A stretch of DNA of 64,000 nucleotides from Pseudomonadota bacterium (lineage in GTDB: Bacteria; Desulfobacterota; Desulfobulbia; Desulfobulbales; SURF-16), in NCBI GenBank assembly GCA_018816555.1, contig JAHIVT010000059.1, forward strand, positions 7,309 to 71,308. The letters are read 5' to 3'. The notes under the pieces are model-generated. The model saw only the letters and a list, made by a program, of their open reading frames with translations. It was not told the DNA's origin and did no database searches. Shown in pieces: positions 30,899 through 41,806 of the stretch; position 1 is the stretch's first letter; the number at the start of each line of letters is the position of its first letter. A program made the translations under genes and the position numbers.

Positions 30899-31831
30899 AT
30901 GTCAAACGCCAAGAAAACCGCCCCCAGCAAAACAATTATTATCCTTGTTCTTCTCGCCCTTGCCGCTGTTGCAGCATTGCTGATAGTAAATGCCAGCCGG
31001 AAAGCGGACAAAAAAACGGCCATCTCCCTGGAGCAGGAGCAGCAGAAACTCCAGGAAAAGGTAAATATTCTTGACAAGGAACTTGCCGCCCCGGAAGGCT
31101 CCGAATCCGGAGGTCAGAGCGAATCTGCCGGCATGCAGACCGAGTCCGGCGCCGAGGCTGATAACCAGGCAGCAGGCAAAGACATTACCATGGATCCCTG
31201 CAAAACCACCTCAGCCGGAATTGATAGGTTTTTTACCCGGCTGGACCAGGAAGATTACATTATCGATCTCAACCTGGAAGGCGGTTCAAAGGCATACTTC
31301 ATCACGGTCATCAATAAGCTGCTGGCCAACAAGCCCACCATCACCAGGGAAACTGACAATCTGCTGTCCATACTCCAGAATGCCGCCCACTTTTATCGTG
31401 TGCTGGGCGAAAAAAATATCTTTACCCTGAAAAAAATCATGGCCCTGGAAAAAGGTCAATTAGAACCGGTGATGGCTGACTTTTACTCTCTCATCCTGCA
31501 CCGGGATGAATGCCTGAGCGTTCAATATCCGATCCAGTTGCCCATGGAGGATTTGTACAGCTATTCGACCTTCTTTCTCAATACCCTCGGAGGCCAGTCC
31601 TATCTGTTTCGCCGAGAACCGGCTTTCAGGACCCTGGTCAAATATTACTGCGTGCTGGTCATGGACCTGGCCAACATGAAGAACGCCAATCCTCTGGGCA
31701 TTGATATCAGATATCCCATCAACAGCCTGATCGAGGAAATGACTGCGACATCCGGCCTGGAGAATAAGGACAAATACCTGGATAATCTTCTCCAGCTGCA
31801 GGAAAAGTATAAAACACTGTATGGCAACTGA
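30899..31831 (+). CDS. Hypothetical membrane-anchored protein
   Basis: 310 aa. It has an N-terminal TM anchor (IIILVLLALAAVAALLIV), then a coiled/acidic linker. No family recognised. Confidence 0.5.
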   Translation: MSNAKKTAPSKTIIILVLLALAAVAALLIVNASRKADKKTAISLEQEQQKLQEKVNILDKELAAPEGSESGGQSESAGMQTESGAEADNQAAGKDITMDPCKTTSAGIDRFFTRLDQEDYIIDLNLEGGSKAYFITVINKLLANKPTITRETDNLLSILQNAAHFYRVLGEKNIFTLKKIMALEKGQLEPVMADFYSLILHRDECLSVQYPIQLPMEDLYSYSTFFLNTLGGQSYLFRREPAFRTLVKYYCVLVMDLANMKNANPLGIDIRYPINSLIEEMTATSGLENKDKYLDNLLQLQEKYKTLYGN

Positions 31832-31878
31832 AATCTGAGATTCCCTGATTTCCGCCAACCTGGCCATAACATAAAGAA

Positions 31879-31912
31879 AGGGAACTGACCGCACAGTCAG
31901 TTCCCTTTTTTT
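31879..31912. terminator. Rho-independent terminator hairpin between the convergent 310-aa gene and the RyR gene (end of the cassette)
   Basis: The stem pairs agggaactgac (31879-31889) with gtcagttccct (31895-31905), followed by a T-run to 31912 on the plus strand. The minus-strand tail is T/C-rich, so it may act in both directions. Confidence 0.7.
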
Positions 31913-31933
31913 ATGTCTATTCTGTTCAAGCAA

Positions 31934-32251
31934 TTATTGCCGAAAAATTCCAAGCCTGATCATTTCGGCAATGATCGCCTTGGCACCCTCCACGTCGATT
32001 CGTTTTTCCGATTCCGGGAGGTGCTCATACGGGACGAGATTCGGCTGCAGCTTCCGGGCTTCATCCCGCTCTTCCCCGTAGCGCCACCCCTGGCCAATCC
32101 TCTCCGCCGCCCACCTGTCATGGTTGACCCGGGCGATTGCCTCCAGCGCGTCGCCCATGACCGCTGCCGCACGCTCCAGTTCGTCGCGACCGGCAATCCG
32201 CGGCTCATACTCCCCGAAAGGTGTCGCGATCTTTTTTACTGCCGCGCTCAA
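31934..32251 (-). CDS. Small RyR-domain protein (ryanodine-receptor repeat, Pfam RyR type); fourth gene of the cassette
   Basis: 105 aa. NHDRWAAERIGQGWRYGEERDEARKLQPNLVPYEHLPESEKRIDVEGAKAII matches the RyR pattern (H-x-x-W-x-x-x-R-x-x-x-G-W-x-Y-G...P-x-L-V-P-Y-x-x-L-P-E-x-E-K). A TTG start at 32251 overlaps the CHAT gene stop (TTGA), and an SD AGGAGA lies 7 nt upstream. Confidence 0.7.
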   Translation of the reverse strand: MSAAVKKIATPFGEYEPRIAGRDELERAAAVMGDALEAIARVNHDRWAAERIGQGWRYGEERDEARKLQPNLVPYEHLPESEKRIDVEGAKAIIAEMIRLGIFRQ

Positions 32252-34215
32252 GGTCTCTCCTTTTGGGGGGATACATTACTGTCACCGAGCGCGGCAAGTG
32301 CGGCCCTGGCAAAATCATCCCATTCATTTTGTTTCCAGATATCGACATAGCGGCGGAACTGCCGCATGGTTGATTGCACGGGAAACTCCTTGGGACCACA
32401 AGTTTCCAGGATCTCGTTGCAGCAACGGATAATTTCCTTCTTAGCCTCCTCCGCACTGTACTGCTCGCCTCCATAAAGAGCGCCCAGCATTTCCAGTTCC
32501 GCCAGCGTTCCGCAGGCCCAGGCCCGCTCGCTCCCAACCGCATTGAGCAACCTCCAGTGGCTGATTTGCCGAGCTGTGCTCCACCAGTGACCATGTTTTT
32601 TTGCCAATTCGGTCATGCCGACTTTTTCAGCCCTCATTAAGACCGCCAGCATTGACAGATACTGGGTGATAACCCAGTTGTTGGAGGGCTCGGCCACCAT
32701 GGCCTGCCTGTATAACAGGCAGCATTTCTGATAGGCTTCCAGTTTTTCCTTCTCCTTGCCTGCGATCTGCTCATAGGCGATGCCGATCCGTTTTTCACTG
32801 GCAGCGCTCACCCCCAGTCGTTCAGCCAGTTCCCTGTCGGAAGATTGCGCCTCAGGTTCTTCCCGCCATGCTTGCAGTTCCTCACGGATGGAGGCACAGA
32901 GACCATCCATCTCCCCGGTCACCGTTTTCTCATCCTGGCCCTCAAACTCTCCGATCTTGAGCAGATCATCGATCCGCGCGAATTTGGTTTCGATCCGCCC
33001 GCGGGTCTGCTTTTCGCGAAAATCGCTGACCTGATTTTCAAAATCCCAGGGCACGGTTGCATAGGTCACGATACTCGCCCAGTCATGCGTTTCCGGGCAA
33101 GAGGTGCGCAGACGCTGCCGCACTTCGTGGAGGACGCAGCGGGGATCGGCCCCCTTGAGCAGACGTTTGTACAGTACTTCAGTAAAGATGGTCGAGGAAC
33201 GCATCCACAGGGGAAACTGGGAGGCAAAGACCCAGGGGATGCCGGCGGCGTGCAGCTCGTGGGCTATGCTGCCGCCGGGGGTGAGCACGGAGCGCACATT
33301 GCCGGAATCGCAGGTTGCCAGCGAGAGCACAGTGGGCCGATGACGGGCGGCGCAGTCCAAAGCGCGGTCCGTGGTAAGGGCAATGGCGAGCCGCTCGCCG
33401 TCAACCACATCGACCTCTGCCGGGTTCGTGCTGTCGCACAACGCAAGCCCGTACTGCTGGTCGCCGGCATGATCATAGGGGGCGCCGTGGGCCAGGATAT
33501 GGACATGGGTGTACTCGGTATCCATACAGGCCTGCCGGATCTGCTCAAGCGTTGCTTCCGGCAGCACGGTGAGTATATTTTTTACCTCGGCCAGCCGCGC
33601 TTCCTCACTGTTCTTGATTTTTATCCAGGGGTCAATAGCGCGGCGCAGGGCAACCAGATGCCGTTCGGCAGGCACCACCGCGAGTCCGCCAGGGGAGGCA
33701 AAGATAAACAGGATGCGGGGCGGACGATTCCATTCCACCGGCAGGGGCCGGCCGCGCCGCACCTCCCTGGTCAGGGTGATGGGTGTCTTTGATTGCAGAA
33801 AGAGCGGCGAACCGGATCCGGGAAAACCTGCCGGGGCAATGGCCGCCTCAAAAGGCAAAAGAGCCAGTTCAAAACCGGAAAGCGACAGCCGCAGATGCAC
33901 AAACTTTCCCTTGGCCGCCTGGACGCTGCCGAGTTCGGCAAGCAGGCCGGGAACCTGGCCGAACATCTGACCGATGGTCTCGCCCAGTTCGCGCAGCTCG
34001 GCCTCCCGCTGACCTGCGGGCACAGGTGTTCCCTCGGTGTAATAGCGGAGCCGTTCCAGGCGGATGAGCAACTGCCGCTGTTCAAAGGGCAGGCGTACGG
34101 TCACCGGTCCGTCGGCACCGCAGAGGACGAGGTAAGGGGTCAGCGGTGACAGGAGCTGGTTGTGCGCCGGGCCGGGTCGCAGGATTTCCAGTTTGACGTT
34201 GTGGATCTCAGACAT
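32248..34215 (-). CDS. CHAT-domain (caspase-like) protease with a C-terminal helical-repeat region; third gene of the cassette
   Basis: The His/Cys dyad context is THVHILAHGAP (His codon at about 33487-33489) and VLSLATCDSG (Cys codon 33310-33312). An upstream ELALLPFE motif is typical of CHAT N-regions. I prefer the ATG at 34215 (MSEIHNVKLEIL) with SD GAGG, 4 nt after the stop of the upstream gene; the track ORF extends to 34362. Confidence 0.8.
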   Translation of the reverse strand: MSEIHNVKLEILRPGPAHNQLLSPLTPYLVLCGADGPVTVRLPFEQRQLLIRLERLRYYTEGTPVPAGQREAELRELGETIGQMFGQVPGLLAELGSVQAAKGKFVHLRLSLSGFELALLPFEAAIAPAGFPGSGSPLFLQSKTPITLTREVRRGRPLPVEWNRPPRILFIFASPGGLAVVPAERHLVALRRAIDPWIKIKNSEEARLAEVKNILTVLPEATLEQIRQACMDTEYTHVHILAHGAPYDHAGDQQYGLALCDSTNPAEVDVVDGERLAIALTTDRALDCAARHRPTVLSLATCDSGNVRSVLTPGGSIAHELHAAGIPWVFASQFPLWMRSSTIFTEVLYKRLLKGADPRCVLHEVRQRLRTSCPETHDWASIVTYATVPWDFENQVSDFREKQTRGRIETKFARIDDLLKIGEFEGQDEKTVTGEMDGLCASIREELQAWREEPEAQSSDRELAERLGVSAASEKRIGIAYEQIAGKEKEKLEAYQKCCLLYRQAMVAEPSNNWVITQYLSMLAVLMRAEKVGMTELAKKHGHWWSTARQISHWRLLNAVGSERAWACGTLAELEMLGALYGGEQYSAEEAKKEIIRCCNEILETCGPKEFPVQSTMRQFRRYVDIWKQNEWDDFARAALAALGDSNVSPQKERP

Positions 34216-34219
34216 GTCT

Positions 34220-35713
34220 TTACCTCGTGAACTGTTGAATGATCGTGCGGGTGACGGGATCGGTTCCTGCAATGTGGGCCAGTTCGCCGACCACTGTGCC
34301 GTCTTCGTCGGCCCTGATGCAGACCGCGCTCTGTTGCCGCAGGACAAAGGATTGCCGGTCAAAGACCGCCTGATCGATATCCTTCATCCGGCCTTTGACA
34401 AGCAGCTCATACACCGGCTTGAAGGTTTCTTCGCTGGCAAGCATGGCCTCGGTGAAACGGAGCAGGCGGATCCAGGTGCCGCAATTAAAATAAAAACGGC
34501 CGCCGCCCAGATCGATGGCGCGTTCAAGATGGGTATGACCGGTGACGATGAAATGGATACCCTGCCCCACCGAGTCGACCATCTCCTTGCAGGCGTCGTC
34601 CCGGTCCGCTATCTCGAAAGTCTTGTCACCCTTGAGCCAGTCTTTCAGTGCCCGGCGCAGGGCCTCGATCTTGCTGACGCCGCTAAACCAGCCGGTGAGC
34701 CGGTCCCAGAGATACTGGCCGGTACCGAGGGTTTCGTCCTGGGGATCAGTGACGGCGCTGCCGGTCTTGTATTGCTTTTCCGCCGCCAGCAGCAGGGCGT
34801 CGGCTGAGGGACGGCTGGCCCCGGCACCGCTGCGCAGTCCCTCCATGAGGTTTGGTCCCAGCAGACCCTCCACAGCCACGGGCCGTGCCTGCTTTTTGGC
34901 CGGGGCGGTGAAACCCTCGGCCGAAAGCCGCTGGTCCACCTCCCTGCTGCCCTCCACCTTCTCACCGATAACCGGGATGAGGCGGTTGATCTTTTCGAGC
35001 TGGCCGGGGTCAAGGGCCAGGAGCACGCCGACAGCGGCCGTCATCTCCGGTTTTAAAAGGTCAATCCAGGGATATTGCCCCTTCACCTTGTTCATGACGT
35101 CCTTGACCATCTTAGTGCCGGCGTTGGGCTCCCATTCGCCAGCCTTAAGCGATCGGCCGCTGTTGAGCCGCCGGGCCGCCTTGGCGAGGTCCTCGTAACG
35201 GACATAGTTCCAGGCGTCCACTTCGTTGCCGTGGGTGCAGAACACCCGGGCGCCGCCCACCAGGCAGGAGTAGCCGGCCCCCATGGTGGAAAACTCGATG
35301 CGGGCCCGGGCCAGGAGATCAGCACCGGCGAGCCGTTCGACCACGGCGCGCTGTACCACCGGAAAAGACAGCTCAAGGTCGTGGTTGCCAAGGGCGATGA
35401 CCAGGGTGCGTTTGTCAATTTTCACAAAATCCGCCAAGGCTTCCCAGATGGGGGCAAAAGCAGGATCTGCCATGATCCGTTTGATCACGGTCTCGGCATT
35501 GTCCACGGCGATGTAGCCGCCGCTCTCCTCGGCCAGGGTGTCGATGACATCACCGTTTAAGACCAGGGCCACTTGCCCGTCCGGCTTTTGTGCCGCCACC
35601 CAGCGGATGAATCCCGCCAGTTTCCCGGTCTCCCGGAGAATCTGAAAACCGGGTTCACCTCCCATGTGGAGGTCGGAGATGACATGAACTTCGTCGAATT
35701 GGGGTAAGGGCAT
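34220..35713 (-). CDS. Calcineurin-like metallophosphoesterase; second gene of the cassette
   Basis: All five MPE motifs occur in order: VISDLHMGG (DxH), NGDVID (GD), LGNHD (GNHD), CTHGNE (H) and VTGHTH (GHxH). A roughly 180-aa insertion precedes the last motif. An SD AAGGAG lies 8 nt upstream of the ATG at 35713. Confidence 0.8.
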   Translation of the reverse strand: MPLPQFDEVHVISDLHMGGEPGFQILRETGKLAGFIRWVAAQKPDGQVALVLNGDVIDTLAEESGGYIAVDNAETVIKRIMADPAFAPIWEALADFVKIDKRTLVIALGNHDLELSFPVVQRAVVERLAGADLLARARIEFSTMGAGYSCLVGGARVFCTHGNEVDAWNYVRYEDLAKAARRLNSGRSLKAGEWEPNAGTKMVKDVMNKVKGQYPWIDLLKPEMTAAVGVLLALDPGQLEKINRLIPVIGEKVEGSREVDQRLSAEGFTAPAKKQARPVAVEGLLGPNLMEGLRSGAGASRPSADALLLAAEKQYKTGSAVTDPQDETLGTGQYLWDRLTGWFSGVSKIEALRRALKDWLKGDKTFEIADRDDACKEMVDSVGQGIHFIVTGHTHLERAIDLGGGRFYFNCGTWIRLLRFTEAMLASEETFKPVYELLVKGRMKDIDQAVFDRQSFVLRQQSAVCIRADEDGTVVGELAHIAGTDPVTRTIIQQFTR

Positions 35714-35737
35714 TGCTGTTCTCCTTGGGTTAGATAG

Positions 35738-38686
35738 TTATGGTGTCTGAATGGTGGCCTTGGCCGGGTCGGCGACGGCCAGCAATTTTTCAAGTTCCTG
35801 GACTTCCCGGTCCCGACGGTGGTAGCCGGTTTCCGCGACCAGTTTTTTGACCTTAACTAGGTGTTCGCGGGCGGAGGGCAAGTCGTTTTCGGCCAGCAGC
35901 AGTCGGCAGCTCTCGAGATGATAATCGGTGAGGAAGAGACGCATACCGCAGCGTTCGGCGATTTCAAAAACTTCGTCCAGGTCGCGGCGGGCAGAGCCAA
36001 ATTGCCCCTGCTCCCGGCAGAAGAAGGCCCGGTCCAGCAGGCCGCGGGGAAGATAATCCTGTCTCCCTGCCTTACGCAGGAAATCAACGGCCACGGCCAG
36101 ATGGCTGACGGCTTCGGCCGTCTCGTCCAGCCGCTGGCAGGCCCGGCATAGGGTGAGATGGTCCAGGCCGATGTCGAGGGGCCAATTTTCAGCCTTAATC
36201 CATTCAAGAGTTTTCTCCGCCCGCTCCCTAGCCTCGGCCGGCCGGTCGAGTTCAAGGAGCAGGTCACAGTAGCGATAGCCCTGCAAGGAGTAGAGGAAAG
36301 GGTACTGGGGCTGGCACTCCCGCTGCATGGCCTCGGCCTGGCGGAACAGCTCCTCCGCTTCGGCCAACCGGCCGTCCTGATGGAGGGAGCCAGCACGGGT
36401 GGTGCGGGTGGCCAAGTGCCAAAAGGCATCACCGCTCTGGTCGGCCAGCTCCACCGACCTTTTCCCATACTCCATAGCCCGGTCCAGGTCACCCGTGACG
36501 AGGAAAAGTTCGCTGAGGTTGCCGGCAATGATGGTCGCATCTTGCCAATTTTCCTGCTGGACCCGCATTTCCAAACCGGCCCGCATCGGCCCGGCCGCCT
36601 CGTCCAACCGACCCAGGGCTCGGAGGCTGAAACCGGCCCAACTCAGAAGCGCCGCCTGATCAAATTCGCGAAGTCCGGTCGCGGGCCGGTCCCAAAGCTT
36701 CTCGAAAAAGTTAGCCAAGGCGCCCAGATCGGAGCCGAATGCGCCGAGTTTGCTCGTGCAGTAATGGTCGGTCATCCTTATGAGTCGTTGCCAGTAAACC
36801 TCCTCCAGCGTCTCCTGCTGCCGGCCGGCCCGGCAGCCATGGGCGCAGGCGTAAAAAAGCGGAGCCATTTCCTCGATGGTGTCCGGCAGTTCCCTGGCAA
36901 TGCCCTTGTAATGCTCATAAAGCCGCAGGTTGCCCTCCTGCCAGGCTGAGGGGAAATGCTTTTGAAGAAGGTCGGCCATATGCTCCCGCACCAGGGGGTG
37001 GCAGTCCAGGTCGCCGGGGCGATGGCTGCTTGTCGGGGCCAGGAGACCGAAGCGCCGCAGTCGACTGAGGCACTCATGGCGGTCTCCTTTTTCCACTGCC
37101 ATGATGCGGCCGGTCAACTCTGGGATGGCCGGCGGGGTGAGGAGTGCTGCCAGGGCCTCCCTGTCGGCCGGGCGATCAAAGAGGCCAAGGAGCCGCAGAT
37201 ACTCGACCTCCGGTGAATCCCCTAAAAGACCGACCAGGGCGGCCATAACCCGCCGGGGTTGGCGACCATGCTCCTCGGGGAGGTCCAGGTCAGGGATATC
37301 GGCCGCGTGTTGGATGTGGTGTTCGGGGATCTCATGGAGATAGGCGGCCAGGAGCTTGACGGCCAGGGCGTGGTTGCCAAAGGCTCGCGAAGCCTCCTCC
37401 AGCTCCAGGTCCGTGCCCCGCACCCCGCCCACGCGCAAAAGCGCTCGGCCGGCTGCGGCGGAAATCTGCTCCAGGTTGCGTGCCTGAACGGTTTGCGGGA
37501 AACGACGGAGATCAGCCACCTCTTCCCGACTGGTGATGAGGCAGAGGCCGGGATTATTCCTGGCCAGTTCCGTGACCAGGGCAGCAAGGCCGGGGTCCTT
37601 GATGCGGCCCTTGTCAAAATCATGCTCGGCCTGCAACGGCTCCAGGCCGTCCAGCACCAGCAGCGTCCGCTGCTGCTTGATGAGGCCTGCCAGCCGCTGG
37701 CCCTTGTCCCAGGGAGAGCCGGTAATAGGATTCGGGTCGCCGAACCAGGCCAGGGCCCCGGCAATGAAGCGGTCCGCCGAGGTGACCCGCTCCCCGCTCC
37801 CCTGGCTGTAAAAAGACCAGCCAAAGACTCGGGCCGCACCGCGATAGTTGTCCGCGGCCATCTCGGCAAGCCAACGGTTGACCAAAGTGGATTTGCCCAC
37901 CCCACCCCAGGCAACAAAAGAGATAATATTGGTTTTGCCCTGCTCCCAGGCACTGTCCAGTAACTCAAGCTCCGCCTCCCGACCAAAGAGTTCTGCCCCG
38001 GTTATAGGCAGACGGGAGATCTCCACCGGAGGCAGCAATAATTCCAAGAGCGAGGTTGGCGTACTTGATTGGCTGAGTGCTTCTTCCGAAAAGTCAATGT
38101 TGAGCAAGAAATCCTGTTCTGTGGGAATGTCCTTATCAGAGAGGCCCGGCAGTGACGGTCCCATTACATTGCCAAGGATCTCATCAATCAACAGATTTTC
38201 AAAAACGAAAGCCTCATGCTCCGGGACGGTCTGCTGCGCCTGTTCCGCCACCTTGATAGCAAAATCCGCGAGCTGCTGTTTCCGCTTTGTTTTACCCCTA
38301 ATGGCAGCAAGACACTTGTTGCCGGTGGGAAACATCTGGATGCCTTTGAGCCAGCGGATGGCCTGCCACGGGCAGGGCTCAGCCAGTAGGGGCAGGATGG
38401 TCAGGTTTTCAGCCGCCCGCCGTTTAAGCAGGGCCGGCACCTCCTCCTTGATGATAAAATCCGAGGCCAGAAAATTTTTGGTGATGAGGCAGACCGCTAC
38501 TCGGGCCCCCTCCACCGCCTCTTTAATCTCCGGGTACCAGTCAGCGCCGGTGTTGATCTTGCGGTCATGCCAGAGCAGCAGATCGCCTTGCTGCTCAAAT
38601 GCCTTGAGATGGGGGAGAAGCTGATTTTTCCACTCCTCATCCAGGTGGCTATAACTGATGAACACCGTGGGCCTGGCAGTACTCAT
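35738..38686 (-). CDS. TIR - NB-ARC (STAND NTPase) - TPR protein; first gene of the cassette
   Basis: The N-terminal TIR is TVFISYSHLDEEW...ARVAVCLITKNFLASDFIIKEE. Walker A is AWGGVGKSTL (DNA 37886-37907). Walker B is NB-ARC-like, TLLVLDGLE, followed by CLITSRE. About 550 aa of C-terminal TPR-like repeats follow. The start is either the ATG at 38686 or the TTG at 38746. Confidence 0.85.
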   Translation of the reverse strand: MSTARPTVFISYSHLDEEWKNQLLPHLKAFEQQGDLLLWHDRKINTGADWYPEIKEAVEGARVAVCLITKNFLASDFIIKEEVPALLKRRAAENLTILPLLAEPCPWQAIRWLKGIQMFPTGNKCLAAIRGKTKRKQQLADFAIKVAEQAQQTVPEHEAFVFENLLIDEILGNVMGPSLPGLSDKDIPTEQDFLLNIDFSEEALSQSSTPTSLLELLLPPVEISRLPITGAELFGREAELELLDSAWEQGKTNIISFVAWGGVGKSTLVNRWLAEMAADNYRGAARVFGWSFYSQGSGERVTSADRFIAGALAWFGDPNPITGSPWDKGQRLAGLIKQQRTLLVLDGLEPLQAEHDFDKGRIKDPGLAALVTELARNNPGLCLITSREEVADLRRFPQTVQARNLEQISAAAGRALLRVGGVRGTDLELEEASRAFGNHALAVKLLAAYLHEIPEHHIQHAADIPDLDLPEEHGRQPRRVMAALVGLLGDSPEVEYLRLLGLFDRPADREALAALLTPPAIPELTGRIMAVEKGDRHECLSRLRRFGLLAPTSSHRPGDLDCHPLVREHMADLLQKHFPSAWQEGNLRLYEHYKGIARELPDTIEEMAPLFYACAHGCRAGRQQETLEEVYWQRLIRMTDHYCTSKLGAFGSDLGALANFFEKLWDRPATGLREFDQAALLSWAGFSLRALGRLDEAAGPMRAGLEMRVQQENWQDATIIAGNLSELFLVTGDLDRAMEYGKRSVELADQSGDAFWHLATRTTRAGSLHQDGRLAEAEELFRQAEAMQRECQPQYPFLYSLQGYRYCDLLLELDRPAEARERAEKTLEWIKAENWPLDIGLDHLTLCRACQRLDETAEAVSHLAVAVDFLRKAGRQDYLPRGLLDRAFFCREQGQFGSARRDLDEVFEIAERCGMRLFLTDYHLESCRLLLAENDLPSAREHLVKVKKLVAETGYHRRDREVQELEKLLAVADPAKATIQTP

Positions 38687-38746
38687 CCGATTCTCTTTCC
38701 GGGTTGGCTGTTTAGCGGGAAATGGGGATGTTGACGTCTTCCCCAA

Positions 38747-39018
38747 AAATGAATGATTGCTCAGAAAAAAACCCGCAATTAAAGAATTTGCAAGAGAAAA
38801 CTGCTATGAGATGGCAGGAAAAAGAAAAAAAAGGAAGAAAGCGGATGGGGATGTAGGGGCACCCCTTGTGGGTGCCCTATCCCAGGCGGATACCGAATTG
38901 GCCATCATGCAGTACGCGAACTCTAACTGCCTGGACAGTGGCAAACAACGGGTAGCCCGCTCCCAGGGCACCCACAAGGGGTGCCCCTACAGGAATGACA
39001 ATTGGCAATCATTCATTT
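38747..39018. repeat. MITE-like 272-bp element bounded by 14-bp perfect terminal inverted repeats and containing a pair of inverted palindromic modules
   Basis: The terminal inverted repeats are aaatgaatgattgc (38747-38760) and gcaatcattcattt (39005-39018). The internal module tgtaggggcaccccttgtgggtgccct (38862-38888) recurs as its reverse complement at 38964-38990, and each copy is itself a hairpin (gggcaccc/gggtgccc). Confidence 0.7.
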
Positions 39019-39063
39019 GTACCCCGTGTCATTCCCATGCAATCGTCCCGCCTAGATACAAGG

Positions 39064-39085
39064 GGGGCGGTTCGCGAACCGCCCC
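39064..39085. repeat. Perfect 22-bp GC-rich palindrome
   Basis: The sequence is ggggcggttcgcgaaccgcccc. It lies about 40 nt downstream of the BI-1 gene stop on the minus strand, with no T-tail. Confidence 0.7.
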
Positions 39086-41041: not shown

Positions 41042-41806
41042 TCACGTCTCTGAAAGAATTCTAAACATATCACCCGGTTCCGGCAGAAAAACATGGAGCC
41101 CGCCAGTTCCGTCCAGCCCGGCAACTTTTTTCTTGGCGGTTTCTCTGCAGGTTCGCTCCAGATGTACCAGGGCAAGATGTTTCCCCCCGGCGCGGCTGGC
41201 AAATTCGAGGCATTTCATGATATTGCCGTGGTTTTCCACCTCCCTGTCCAGCCTGAAGGCCTCGTGCACGATCAAATCACATCCTGCTGCCAGAGTTTCC
41301 GTTTCCCTGGTCGGCCTGCCATCCCCGCTGTAAAAAATCCGGTGGCTGCCGTCATCAATGCGTATGGACAGACAACGCTGGGAATGGATATTTTCCGCCG
41401 AGCTCCAGTTCGTGCCGGCAATTTCCCGGGCCTGTCCCGGTTCTATTTCCACAAAATCAAGGTGGTACATGAGCCGCGGCAGAAAGCCGGGGTAGGCAAG
41501 CTCCATGGCCGCCGTAATCTTTTCCAGGATGCCCTGCTGCCCGGCAATAACCAGCTTTTTCCTCCGGCCCATTTCCCAGAATCTGAGGAGCAACAGCGGC
41601 ATGCCGAAAAAATGATCGCCATGAAAGTGAGAAATCCAGACAGCGTCCAGTTCGTCCGGATCGCTGCTCAGACCAAAATAGAGATGGGGGGTGGTAAAAC
41701 CGCAGTCCAGCAGGAACCGCTGCCCCTTTCCCGCTGTCACATGAAGCGAGGTATTGGGACAGTGTTGATCGCAGGCTTCGCCAACCCCTAAAAAGTGTAT
41801 TTTCAT
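41042..41806 (-). CDS. MBL-fold metallo-hydrolase (RNase Z-like)
   Basis: 254 aa. The HxHxDH motif is ISHFHGDHF and the N-terminus is MKIHFLGVGEA. Confidence 0.75.
   Translation of the reverse strand: MKIHFLGVGEACDQHCPNTSLHVTAGKGQRFLLDCGFTTPHLYFGLSSDPDELDAVWISHFHGDHFFGMPLLLLRFWEMGRRKKLVIAGQQGILEKITAAMELAYPGFLPRLMYHLDFVEIEPGQAREIAGTNWSSAENIHSQRCLSIRIDDGSHRIFYSGDGRPTRETETLAAGCDLIVHEAFRLDREVENHGNIMKCLEFASRAGGKHLALVHLERTCRETAKKKVAGLDGTGGLHVFLPEPGDMFRILSET

Follow-up and report, generated by a model that had tools for sequence, protein, structure and literature searches.

A stand-alone RyR-repeat protein encoded directly after a CHAT protease gene in a TIR-containing operon: a candidate nucleotide-binding accessory protein

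The stretch of DNA analysed here, in the following referred to as the window, comprises 64,000 nucleotides (nt) of contig JAHIVT010000059.1 (positions 7,309 to 71,308, forward strand) in the GenBank assembly GCA_018816555.1 of a Pseudomonadota bacterium, which GTDB places in the Desulfobulbales (Desulfobulbia, Desulfobacterota; SURF-16). It harbours an operon of four genes on the minus strand, the last of which encodes a small protein with a single ryanodine receptor (RyR) repeat. The RyR gene is preceded by the genes of a TIR-STAND-TPR protein, a calcineurin-like metallophosphoesterase (MPE) and a CHAT protease. The following features of the operon are referred to below:

31934..32251, minus strand: RyR gene, encoding a stand-alone single-repeat protein of 105 amino acids (aa) from a TTG start (based on Pfam, an AlphaFold2 (AF2) model and the ratio of non-synonymous to synonymous substitution rates (dN/dS))
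32256..32261, minus strand: Shine-Dalgarno sequence AGGAGA of the RyR gene, located within the 3' end of the CHAT gene (read from the sequence)
32248..34215, minus strand: CHAT caspase-like protease, 655 aa from the ATG at 34215 (Pfam CHAT, E=1.4e-23)
34220..35713, minus strand: MPE, calcineurin-like metallophosphoesterase, 497 aa (Pfam Metallophos, E=9e-9)
35738..38686, minus strand: TIR-STAND(NACHT-like)-TPR protein of about 980 aa, with its likely start at the ATG at 38686; the open reading frame (ORF) reaches the TTG at 38746
31870..31915, both strands: bidirectional intrinsic terminator with a 20-bp stem and T-runs on both strands, 19 nt past the RyR stop codon

According to the Pfam search the RyR protein matches PF02026 over residues 35-102 (E=7.3e-18; score 65 bits, the cutoff being 27.4) and contains no other recognised domain, which bears out the proposal of an earlier, sequence-only reading of the window that the 105-aa ORF consists essentially of one RyR repeat. 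Its 17 homologues, all of about 105 aa and sharing 63-91% identity, originate without exception from Desulfobulbia/Thermodesulfobacteriota-type metagenome bins, and pairwise dN/dS values range between 0.10 and 0.30 (pairs with dS > 0.35). On the minus strand, which that reading had left unnamed, the junction between the CHAT and RyR genes reads CAAAAGGAGAGACC-TTGA, the TTG start codon of the RyR gene (32251-32249) overlapping the TGA stop codon of the CHAT gene (32250-32248) as the same reading had stated. The AGGAGA motif, reported there as lying 7 nt upstream, was located approximately correctly, with its centre about 7 nt and its 3' end 4 nt away from the TTG. The position of the start codon is kept among the orthologues, four of which use TTG and two ATG at the same codon, and a Shine-Dalgarno sequence of the GGAG type is found at equal distance from the start in six orthologous loci. 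Within the first 20 residues I8, P11, Y15 and P17 are invariant in the family alignment, and the N-terminal segment TPFGEYEP is both invariant and specific to this family. Given the Pfam match, the 17 homologues, the dN/dS values, the conserved start with its ATG variants and the confident structural model described below, the region 31934..32251 encodes a genuine protein under purifying selection, and the ORF singled out by the earlier reading is more than a product of chance. An antisense ORF of 145 aa (31913-32350, plus strand) was discarded because it belongs to no family and overlaps the gene under purifying selection.

The AF2 model of the RyR protein (pLDDT, the predicted local distance difference test, 92.5) was compared with known structures using Foldseek. 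The best structural match was the "putative ryanodine receptor" of Bacteroides thetaiotaomicron (3NRT, 6UAG, 6UAM), a stand-alone protein of about 100 aa that was crystallised as dimers; for 3NRT/6UAG the TM-score amounts to 0.72-0.80 at 36-38% identity. A total of 94 of the 105 residues superpose on 3NRT, and the conserved N-terminal segment is modelled inside the fold. The model also matches crystal structures of Repeat12 (R12) of RyR1-3, including RyR1/RyR3 entries solved with ATP, ADP, AMP-PCP or dantrolene, and a comparison of the RyR family profile with the PDB likewise retrieved R12 of RyR1-3 and 3NRT.

The prokaryotic RyR repeat was without known function until 2026, when two preprints showed that phage versions neutralise TIR-derived cyclic ADP-ribose (cADPR) signals. 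RyDEP, the product of gp78 of mycobacteriophage DyoEdafos, acts as a glycosidase on 2'cADPR and 3'cADPR, which it opens to ADP-ribose (ADPR), employing an H75/D117 dyad, W78 for stacking the adenine and H100 for contacting the phosphates; binding of 2'/3'cADPR was shown for six of eight phage homologues, two of which were characterised further and are nanomolar sponges (PMC13232231, 2026 preprint). RyR-Tad (gp68 of Pectobacterium phage CB1) binds 3'cADPR at 43 nM as well as 2'cADPR and cADPR, the ligand contacts being H129/W132, K147, H154 and K170/D171 (bioRxiv 10.64898/2026.06.04.730250, 2026 preprint). Homodimerisation through the helices alpha1 and alpha4 is taken as a characteristic of this group.

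In a gap-free alignment of the window RyR with RyDEP, whose gp78 sequence was taken from MN234187, H75, W78, H100 and D117 correspond to H44, W47, Q69 and D86, and in the numbering of RyR-Tad K147 and H154 correspond to R62 and Q69. The window protein is consequently identical to the phage proteins at the ligand residues H44, W47 and D86, has Arg (R62) in place of Lys and carries Gln (Q69) in place of His. Of the 17 family members, 13 have His as residue 69, Gln being restricted to the window RyR and its three closest relatives. The residues H44, W47, G55, W56, G59, D63, K67, P70, P74, L78 and D86 are invariant among host and phage proteins. Since these residues are kept across host and phage RyR proteins, homology indicates that the window RyR retains the pocket which the phage proteins use for cADPR isomers. 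[quoted passage not shown] The idea of the sequence-only reading that the bacterial RyR module might bind a TIR-derived nucleotide thereby receives strong, albeit indirect, support from the phage relatives and the kept ligand residues.

Similar to RyDEP and RyR-Tad, the window RyR is a stand-alone single PF02026 repeat sharing the ligand residues, and its predicted fold is that of an R12-like, dimer-forming repeat. It differs from both in being encoded by the host in a TIR operon and not in a phage anti-defence or NAD-salvage locus, in its identity of only about 30-37% over the core, in its own TPFGEYEP hairpin and in the Gln at the position of the phosphate-binding His. Sequence and fold both assign the protein to the RyR/PF02026 family; its gene does not belong to the phage anti-defence genes.

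Overall, RyR genes are rare. A word-indexed search yielded 2381 matches among 5.8 billion protein clusters, and an exhaustive search yielded 5256 representatives out of 1.8 billion. Phages or prophages encode most of the small RyR proteins of about 115 aa (182 phage records, PHROG matches), and two of these proteins located on long contigs (P0090 and P0027) have prophage or phage surroundings; the profile search for RyR relatives was dominated by such phage-like proteins of about 115 aa and was uninformative on host operons. In the best-scoring 84 of the 5256 representatives, two to six RyR repeats are combined with other domains, namely TrkA_N/RCK modules, ion channels or eukaryotic signalling domains, and a Pfam scan of these 84 detected no fusion of RyR to TIR, CHAT or STAND. 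One family of 700-1000 aa combines TrkA_N/RCK with two C-terminal RyR repeats (P0266, P0269, P0276 and about 20 others), and other RyR repeats are joined to Ion_trans, PKD or cyclic nucleotide (cNMP)-binding channels. The existence of both stand-alone phage proteins and channel fusions implies that the repeat can act either as a ligand sink or as a regulatory sensor in cis.

In the window operon the genes follow each other in the order TIR-STAND-TPR, MPE, CHAT and RyR. The spacer between the TIR-STAND and MPE genes measures 24 nt and contains AAGGAGA, that between MPE and CHAT measures 4 nt, and CHAT and RyR overlap by 4 nt. The RyR gene is co-transcribed with the CHAT gene and, in the window, also translationally coupled to it. 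Of the earlier claim that RyR is coupled to a TIR-containing operon, the CHAT gene and a protein with TIR_2, NACHT/AAA_16-like and TPR regions were confirmed, but the MPE, the universal partner of this CHAT family, had been overlooked. The operon is chromosomal and situated between the gene of Bax1-I and housekeeping genes, and no phage genes were found in the window island. The content of guanine and cytosine (GC) in the four operon genes is 57-65%, compared to 42-55% in the flanks (window 31000-39000), which suggests horizontal acquisition of the island. Just past the Bax1-I gene, at 39064-39085 (minus strand), a strong GC-rich hairpin, GGGGCGGTTCGCGAACCGCCCC, was detected; a separate promoter of the TIR operon is thereby implied for the gap 38746-39064, in which a sigma-70 promoter scan returned no candidate. 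The site between the Bax1-I gene and a gene encoding a 310-aa protein represents a hotspot of cassette swapping (window 31934-38746 versus L008/L009:1382-10225). Near the island, at 41042-41806 (minus strand), lies the gene of a 254-aa protein with a metallo-beta-lactamase fold, whose homologue in locus L006 matches PF23023 (Anti-Pycsar Apyc1) and Lactamase_B, and which may be a cyclic-nucleotide phosphodiesterase.

The genomic context of RyR was surveyed from the CHAT side, covering 95 MPE-CHAT loci, which fall into 56 clusters when CHAT proteins are grouped at 90% identity; a contig scan with the alignment of the close RyR family, which produces very specific patterns, gave five loci. The arrangement Bax1-I, TIR-STAND-TPR, MPE, CHAT and RyR is shared by the window, L006/L025 and L010. 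At the same site in L109 an IS110-type transposase gene (L109:982-2130) is located between TIR-STAND and MPE. L008/L009 possess the same TIR-STAND at the same site and a RyR kept at 84% identity, with a single 1809-aa DUF7379/LCAT hydrolase-CHAT-TPR-S protein, which shows no BLAST similarity to the window CHAT, replacing MPE and CHAT. The order in L001/L012 is DUF4062, response-regulator-HATPase, MPE, CHAT and RyR, L005 contains insertion sequence (IS) remnants (L005:5276-5863) followed by MPE, CHAT and RyR, and in L013 (Desulfocapsa) MPE, CHAT and RyR were found. A second gain of RyR is represented by L057/L058, where the genes of TIR-FGE, a 989-aa TPR protein, MPE and CHAT (57% identical to the window CHAT) are followed, about 90 nt after CHAT, by a convergent, canonical RyR gene of a different subfamily.

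In the first RyR clade the CHAT proteins are at least about 73% identical to the window CHAT, and RyR is absent from L029 (CHAT 73%) and L108 (CHAT 71%; MPE frameshifted, L108:7505-8996). This frameshift, the transposase gene of L109 and the IS remnants upstream of the MPE in L005 are signs of decay and rearrangement among the relatives. The TTGA overlap is confined to the lineage of the window and L006; the junctions checked in L001, L005, L013 and L109 have a spacer of about 90-130 nt between CHAT and RyR. RyR is always positioned directly after a CHAT gene, in seven context types and after two independent gains, and the subfamily of the window RyR (63-91% identity) was found only beside CHAT genes. 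An exchange of either partner, TIR or CHAT, leaves RyR in place. Considering the rarity of RyR and its two gains at the same position, a chance association is very unlikely, and the RyR-CHAT link is firm. On a short contig (L011:1-3762) an intact RyR gene occurs together with fragments of the MPE and TIR-STAND genes; the gene order is odd, and the contig represents either a rearranged locus or a chimeric assembly.

The link between RyR and TIR is suggestive. TIR-STAND accompanies RyR in the window, L006, L010, L008/L009 and L109, and TIR-FGE does so in L057, so that RyR is found together with TIR in the window clade and, independently, in the lineage of L057. In 50 of the 56 clusters MPE-CHAT is found without RyR, ten of them being linked to TIR. 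Among the MPE-CHAT clusters TIR is present in 3/6 with RyR and in 10/50 without (Fisher p=0.13), and with the L008 context added the counts are 4/7 and 10/50 (p=0.05). The genomic linkage of RyR with TIR, on which the sequence-only reading had placed its emphasis, hence stands in part: several RyR loci do have TIR genes, with p values of 0.13-0.05, but the strict partner is CHAT and TIR is missing in L005 and L013.

The CHAT protein comprises an N-terminal beta domain, the CHAT fold and C-terminal TPR-like helical repeats in its AF2 model (pLDDT 85), and its catalytic residues H243 and C302 are invariant in 58 homologues. Its start was chosen from the junction sequence and the gene calls in homologues; a longer version of 704 aa was discarded, as it would run into the MPE gene over its first 49 codons and the internal ATG serves as start in homologues. 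According to Foldseek the model resembles SAVED-CHAT and the TPR-CHAT protease Csx29 (8TL0, 7ZOQ, 8EEX; E 1e-7 to 1e-5) as well as separase, and the PADLOC model SAVED_CHAT matches over the CHAT part only (E=2.5e-13). No nucleotide-sensor domain is recognisable in the CHAT model, SAVED being without a match in Pfam or in the model. In the MPE the motifs DxH, GD, GNHD, H and GHTH are invariant in 30 homologues, and no relatives of the MPE were retrieved from the PDB (by sequence or profile), NCBIfam, PADLOC or PHROGs.

The CHAT family is conserved over its full length (1866 matches, 56-80% identity), its hosts including Methylocaldum, Nitrosomonas, Methylobacter and Desulfosediminicola. In each of the 95 loci with enough upstream sequence the MPE gene lies directly upstream of CHAT. 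This strictly conserved module (window 32248-35713, loci L018-L103; 56 clusters) is spread over genomes of the Gamma-, Beta- and Deltaproteobacteria type. Often its only neighbours are housekeeping genes, for example in Nitrosomonas communis, Methylocaldum szegediense and Desulfosediminicola flagellatus, and no CRISPR genes were found in the loci examined. The CHAT proteins of loci with and without RyR are equal in length and architecture. MPE-CHAT is an autonomous and widespread two-gene core to which TIR sensors and RyR are add-ons. We found no description of the MPE-CHAT pair in the literature, and it has no PADLOC entry.

For the TIR-STAND protein Pfam reports TIR_2 (E=9e-14), TPR_MalT and TPR_12 above their cutoffs, and NACHT (24.0 versus 26.7 bits) and AAA_16 (20.7 versus 32.6 bits) below them. 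The protein matches the ThsB-like TIR of PADLOC (E=1.7e-18) and none of the Avs models of that database. When aligned with plant TIRs, its catalytic Glu coincides with that of their motif "WCLDEL", and the window TIR is probably active as judged from this alignment. An iterated TIR profile search of all ORFs of the loci, in which representative matches were verified with Pfam, showed at least 13 of the 56 MPE-CHAT clusters to be flanked by TIR_2 genes; the DUF4062 protein of L001, for which a profile comparison with TIR gave a probability of 2%, was left out of these counts. The TIR genes beside MPE-CHAT display at least six architectures, and most of the TIRs retain the catalytic Glu. This recurrent recruitment argues for a functional link between TIR and MPE-CHAT. 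The architectures include TIR-STAND-TPR, LRR-Roc-COR-TIR (a ROCO-like GTPase), TIR-TPR directly after CHAT, TIR-FGE-sulfatase and a 440-aa protein with a C-terminal TIR, among others. Unusual TIR proteins beside MPE-CHAT are encoded at:

L039:5436-8312
L054:4635-8015
L057:3890-5257
L053:5940-6881

Among known systems the window operon resembles type IV Thoeris in outline. Type IV Thoeris consists of a short TIR protein and the caspase-like ThsE and uses N7-cADPR as signal; the window operon likewise pairs a TIR possessing the catalytic Glu with a Cys/His protease of caspase fold, and the activation of a protease by a TIR signal may by analogy serve as a plausible template. The differences are that the window TIR forms the N-terminal domain of a larger protein with STAND NTPase and TPR regions, that the operon comprises four genes instead of two, and that its protease is a 655-aa CHAT+TPR protein with an obligate MPE of 497 aa (ThsE was compared by architecture). 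With SAVED-CHAT and the TPR-CHAT protease Csx29 the window protein shares the CHAT fold and the catalytic His and Cys, and the idea of a protease controlled by a nucleotide or a partner protein applies to it as well. Since it has neither SAVED nor a CRISPR context and is instead characterised by C-terminal helical repeats and the obligate MPE, the window operon is not a SAVED-CHAT or Craspase system. Compared to Avs/NLR-like TIR-STAND proteins, which are tripartite with an N-terminal effector (TIR), a central STAND NTPase and a C-terminal repeat sensor, the TIR and TPR regions of the window protein score above the Pfam cutoffs and its NACHT/AAA_16 region below them. Type III CRISPR systems encode ring nucleases, small host proteins located with the signalling immune system whose second messenger they remove. 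To a window RyR acting as a sink these would be analogous in function only, fold and ligand being unrelated.

Taking the pocket and the genomic context together, the window RyR is possibly a host-encoded accessory protein serving as nucleotide-binding sink or off-switch of a TIR signal, a reading which we favour tentatively. As in the solved stand-alone RyR proteins, it would form a homodimer mimicking the Repeat12 domain with two ligand pockets, and it would bind an ADP-ribose-derived nucleotide produced by the TIR of the neighbouring STAND sensor. Being a bare ligand-binding module without output domain, it would act as a signal sponge or as a glycosidase similar to RyDEP. In this role it would define the threshold for activation or return the system to its resting state, leaky TIR activity then sparing the CHAT and MPE effectors, and the weak TTG start coupled to the CHAT gene would hold RyR at a low, fixed ratio to the protease. 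We favour a sink because RyR is a bare module, because MPE-CHAT apparently works without it in most lineages, ten TIR-linked clusters included, and because the CHAT proteins are unchanged where RyR is present.

Several observations weigh against the sink. The phosphate-contacting His is replaced by Gln in the window RyR and its three closest relatives. No TIR gene was found within about 10 kilobases of RyR in L005 or L013, the association between RyR and TIR is not significant once the non-independence of the clusters is considered, and RyR tracks the CHAT gene more strictly than TIR. Its position beside an unrelated CHAT fusion in L008/L009 fits a CHAT-directed role equally well. Furthermore, RyR repeats in cellular multidomain proteins, where they are fused to channels and TrkA_N/RCK, serve as sensors, and the TIR of STAND proteins is usually an NAD-depleting effector and not the producer of a signal (bioRxiv 10.64898/2025.12.03.692087).

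The main alternative is a receptor or adaptor function, which appears somewhat unlikely to us. In such a scenario the nucleotide-bound, closed RyR dimer would dock on the TPR-like C-terminal domain of CHAT (or on the MPE) and activate it, RyR being a sensor subunit acting in trans and playing a part similar to that of SAVED in SAVED-CHAT or of the C-terminal domain in the caspase of type IV Thoeris. The invariable position of RyR right after CHAT across the seven context types and two gains, its retention when the CHAT cassette was swapped for another CHAT+TPR-S protein, the overlap of the CHAT stop with the RyR start and the CHAT model devoid of a recognisable nucleotide-sensor domain are all consistent with this function. 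It also agrees with the role of RyR repeats as regulatory modules on ion channels and TrkA_N proteins and with the Bacteroides RyR having been crystallised as open and closed dimers (according to the entry titles). However, the 50 of 56 clusters in which MPE-CHAT lacks RyR include ten with an adjacent TIR, so that RyR is not needed for coupling TIR to CHAT, the CHAT architecture is the same with and without RyR, and all stand-alone RyR proteins tested so far are sponges or hydrolases. The specific chain of events in which a cADPR-type nucleotide from TIR-STAND would close the RyR dimer, which in turn would activate the CHAT and MPE effector pair, is regarded as rather unlikely.

A role as metabolic sensor, in which RyR would report the ATP/ADP/ADPR status to MPE-CHAT and the TIR-STAND protein would be an independent Avs-like NADase, seems improbable. 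It would explain the presence of RyR with MPE-CHAT and without TIR in L005 and L013 as well as the weak statistics of RyR and TIR, and it is in line with the binding of ATP, ADP or AMP-PCP by the animal Repeat12 (PDB titles) and with the typical function of STAND-borne TIRs as NADase effectors (bioRxiv 10.64898/2025.12.03.692087). On the other hand, the 24-nt spacer with its Shine-Dalgarno sequence joins TIR-STAND to MPE in one operon, TIRs of at least six architectures recur beside MPE-CHAT, and the closest characterised stand-alone relatives prefer cADPR isomers.

CHAT-family proteases of CRISPR systems cleave specific proteins encoded beside them, as Csx29 does with Csx30, and RyR could correspondingly be a substrate or decoy that is released or inactivated through cleavage by CHAT. 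We consider this very unlikely, even though RyR is adjacent to and co-translated with CHAT and possesses the invariant, family-specific N-terminal TPFGEYEP: there is no indication of a cleavage site, the fold of the model includes the conserved N-terminal segment, 94 of the 105 residues superposing on 3NRT, and the MPE is the more likely substrate because it is the universal neighbour of the CHAT family. Equally little credence is given to RyR as a mere passenger, a captured phage-derived anti-Thoeris gene with no part in its own operon and directed, for instance, at TIR systems elsewhere in the host or in competing elements, given that the phage or prophage origin of most small RyR proteins (182 phage records, P0090, P0027, PHROG) and the foreign GC content of the island are opposed by the lack of phage genes in the island, the purifying selection, the same position in at least seven contexts, the operon coupling and the restriction of the RyR subfamily to the neighbourhood of CHAT genes.

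The searchable literature yielded no account of a host RyR in a TIR/CHAT or defence operon, and neither Kaur et al. 2020/2021 nor the 2025 Thoeris survey mentions RyR in such a role. If RyR is a sink for the signal, it would be, as far as we could find, the first host-encoded regulator of a bacterial TIR signal, forming a counterpart of the CRISPR ring nucleases, and it would suggest where the phage sponges are likely to have originated. If RyR instead receives the signal, it would constitute a sensor class new to Thoeris-like systems, and the action of cADPR on RyR domains would have a precedent in bacteria; phage RyDEP and RyR-Tad would then be hijacked copies of a host immune receptor, and the disputed link between cADPR and RyR in animals would become directly testable through the conserved pocket. 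The MPE-CHAT pair, which recruits TIRs of strikingly varied sensor architecture, is a candidate defence system in its own right.

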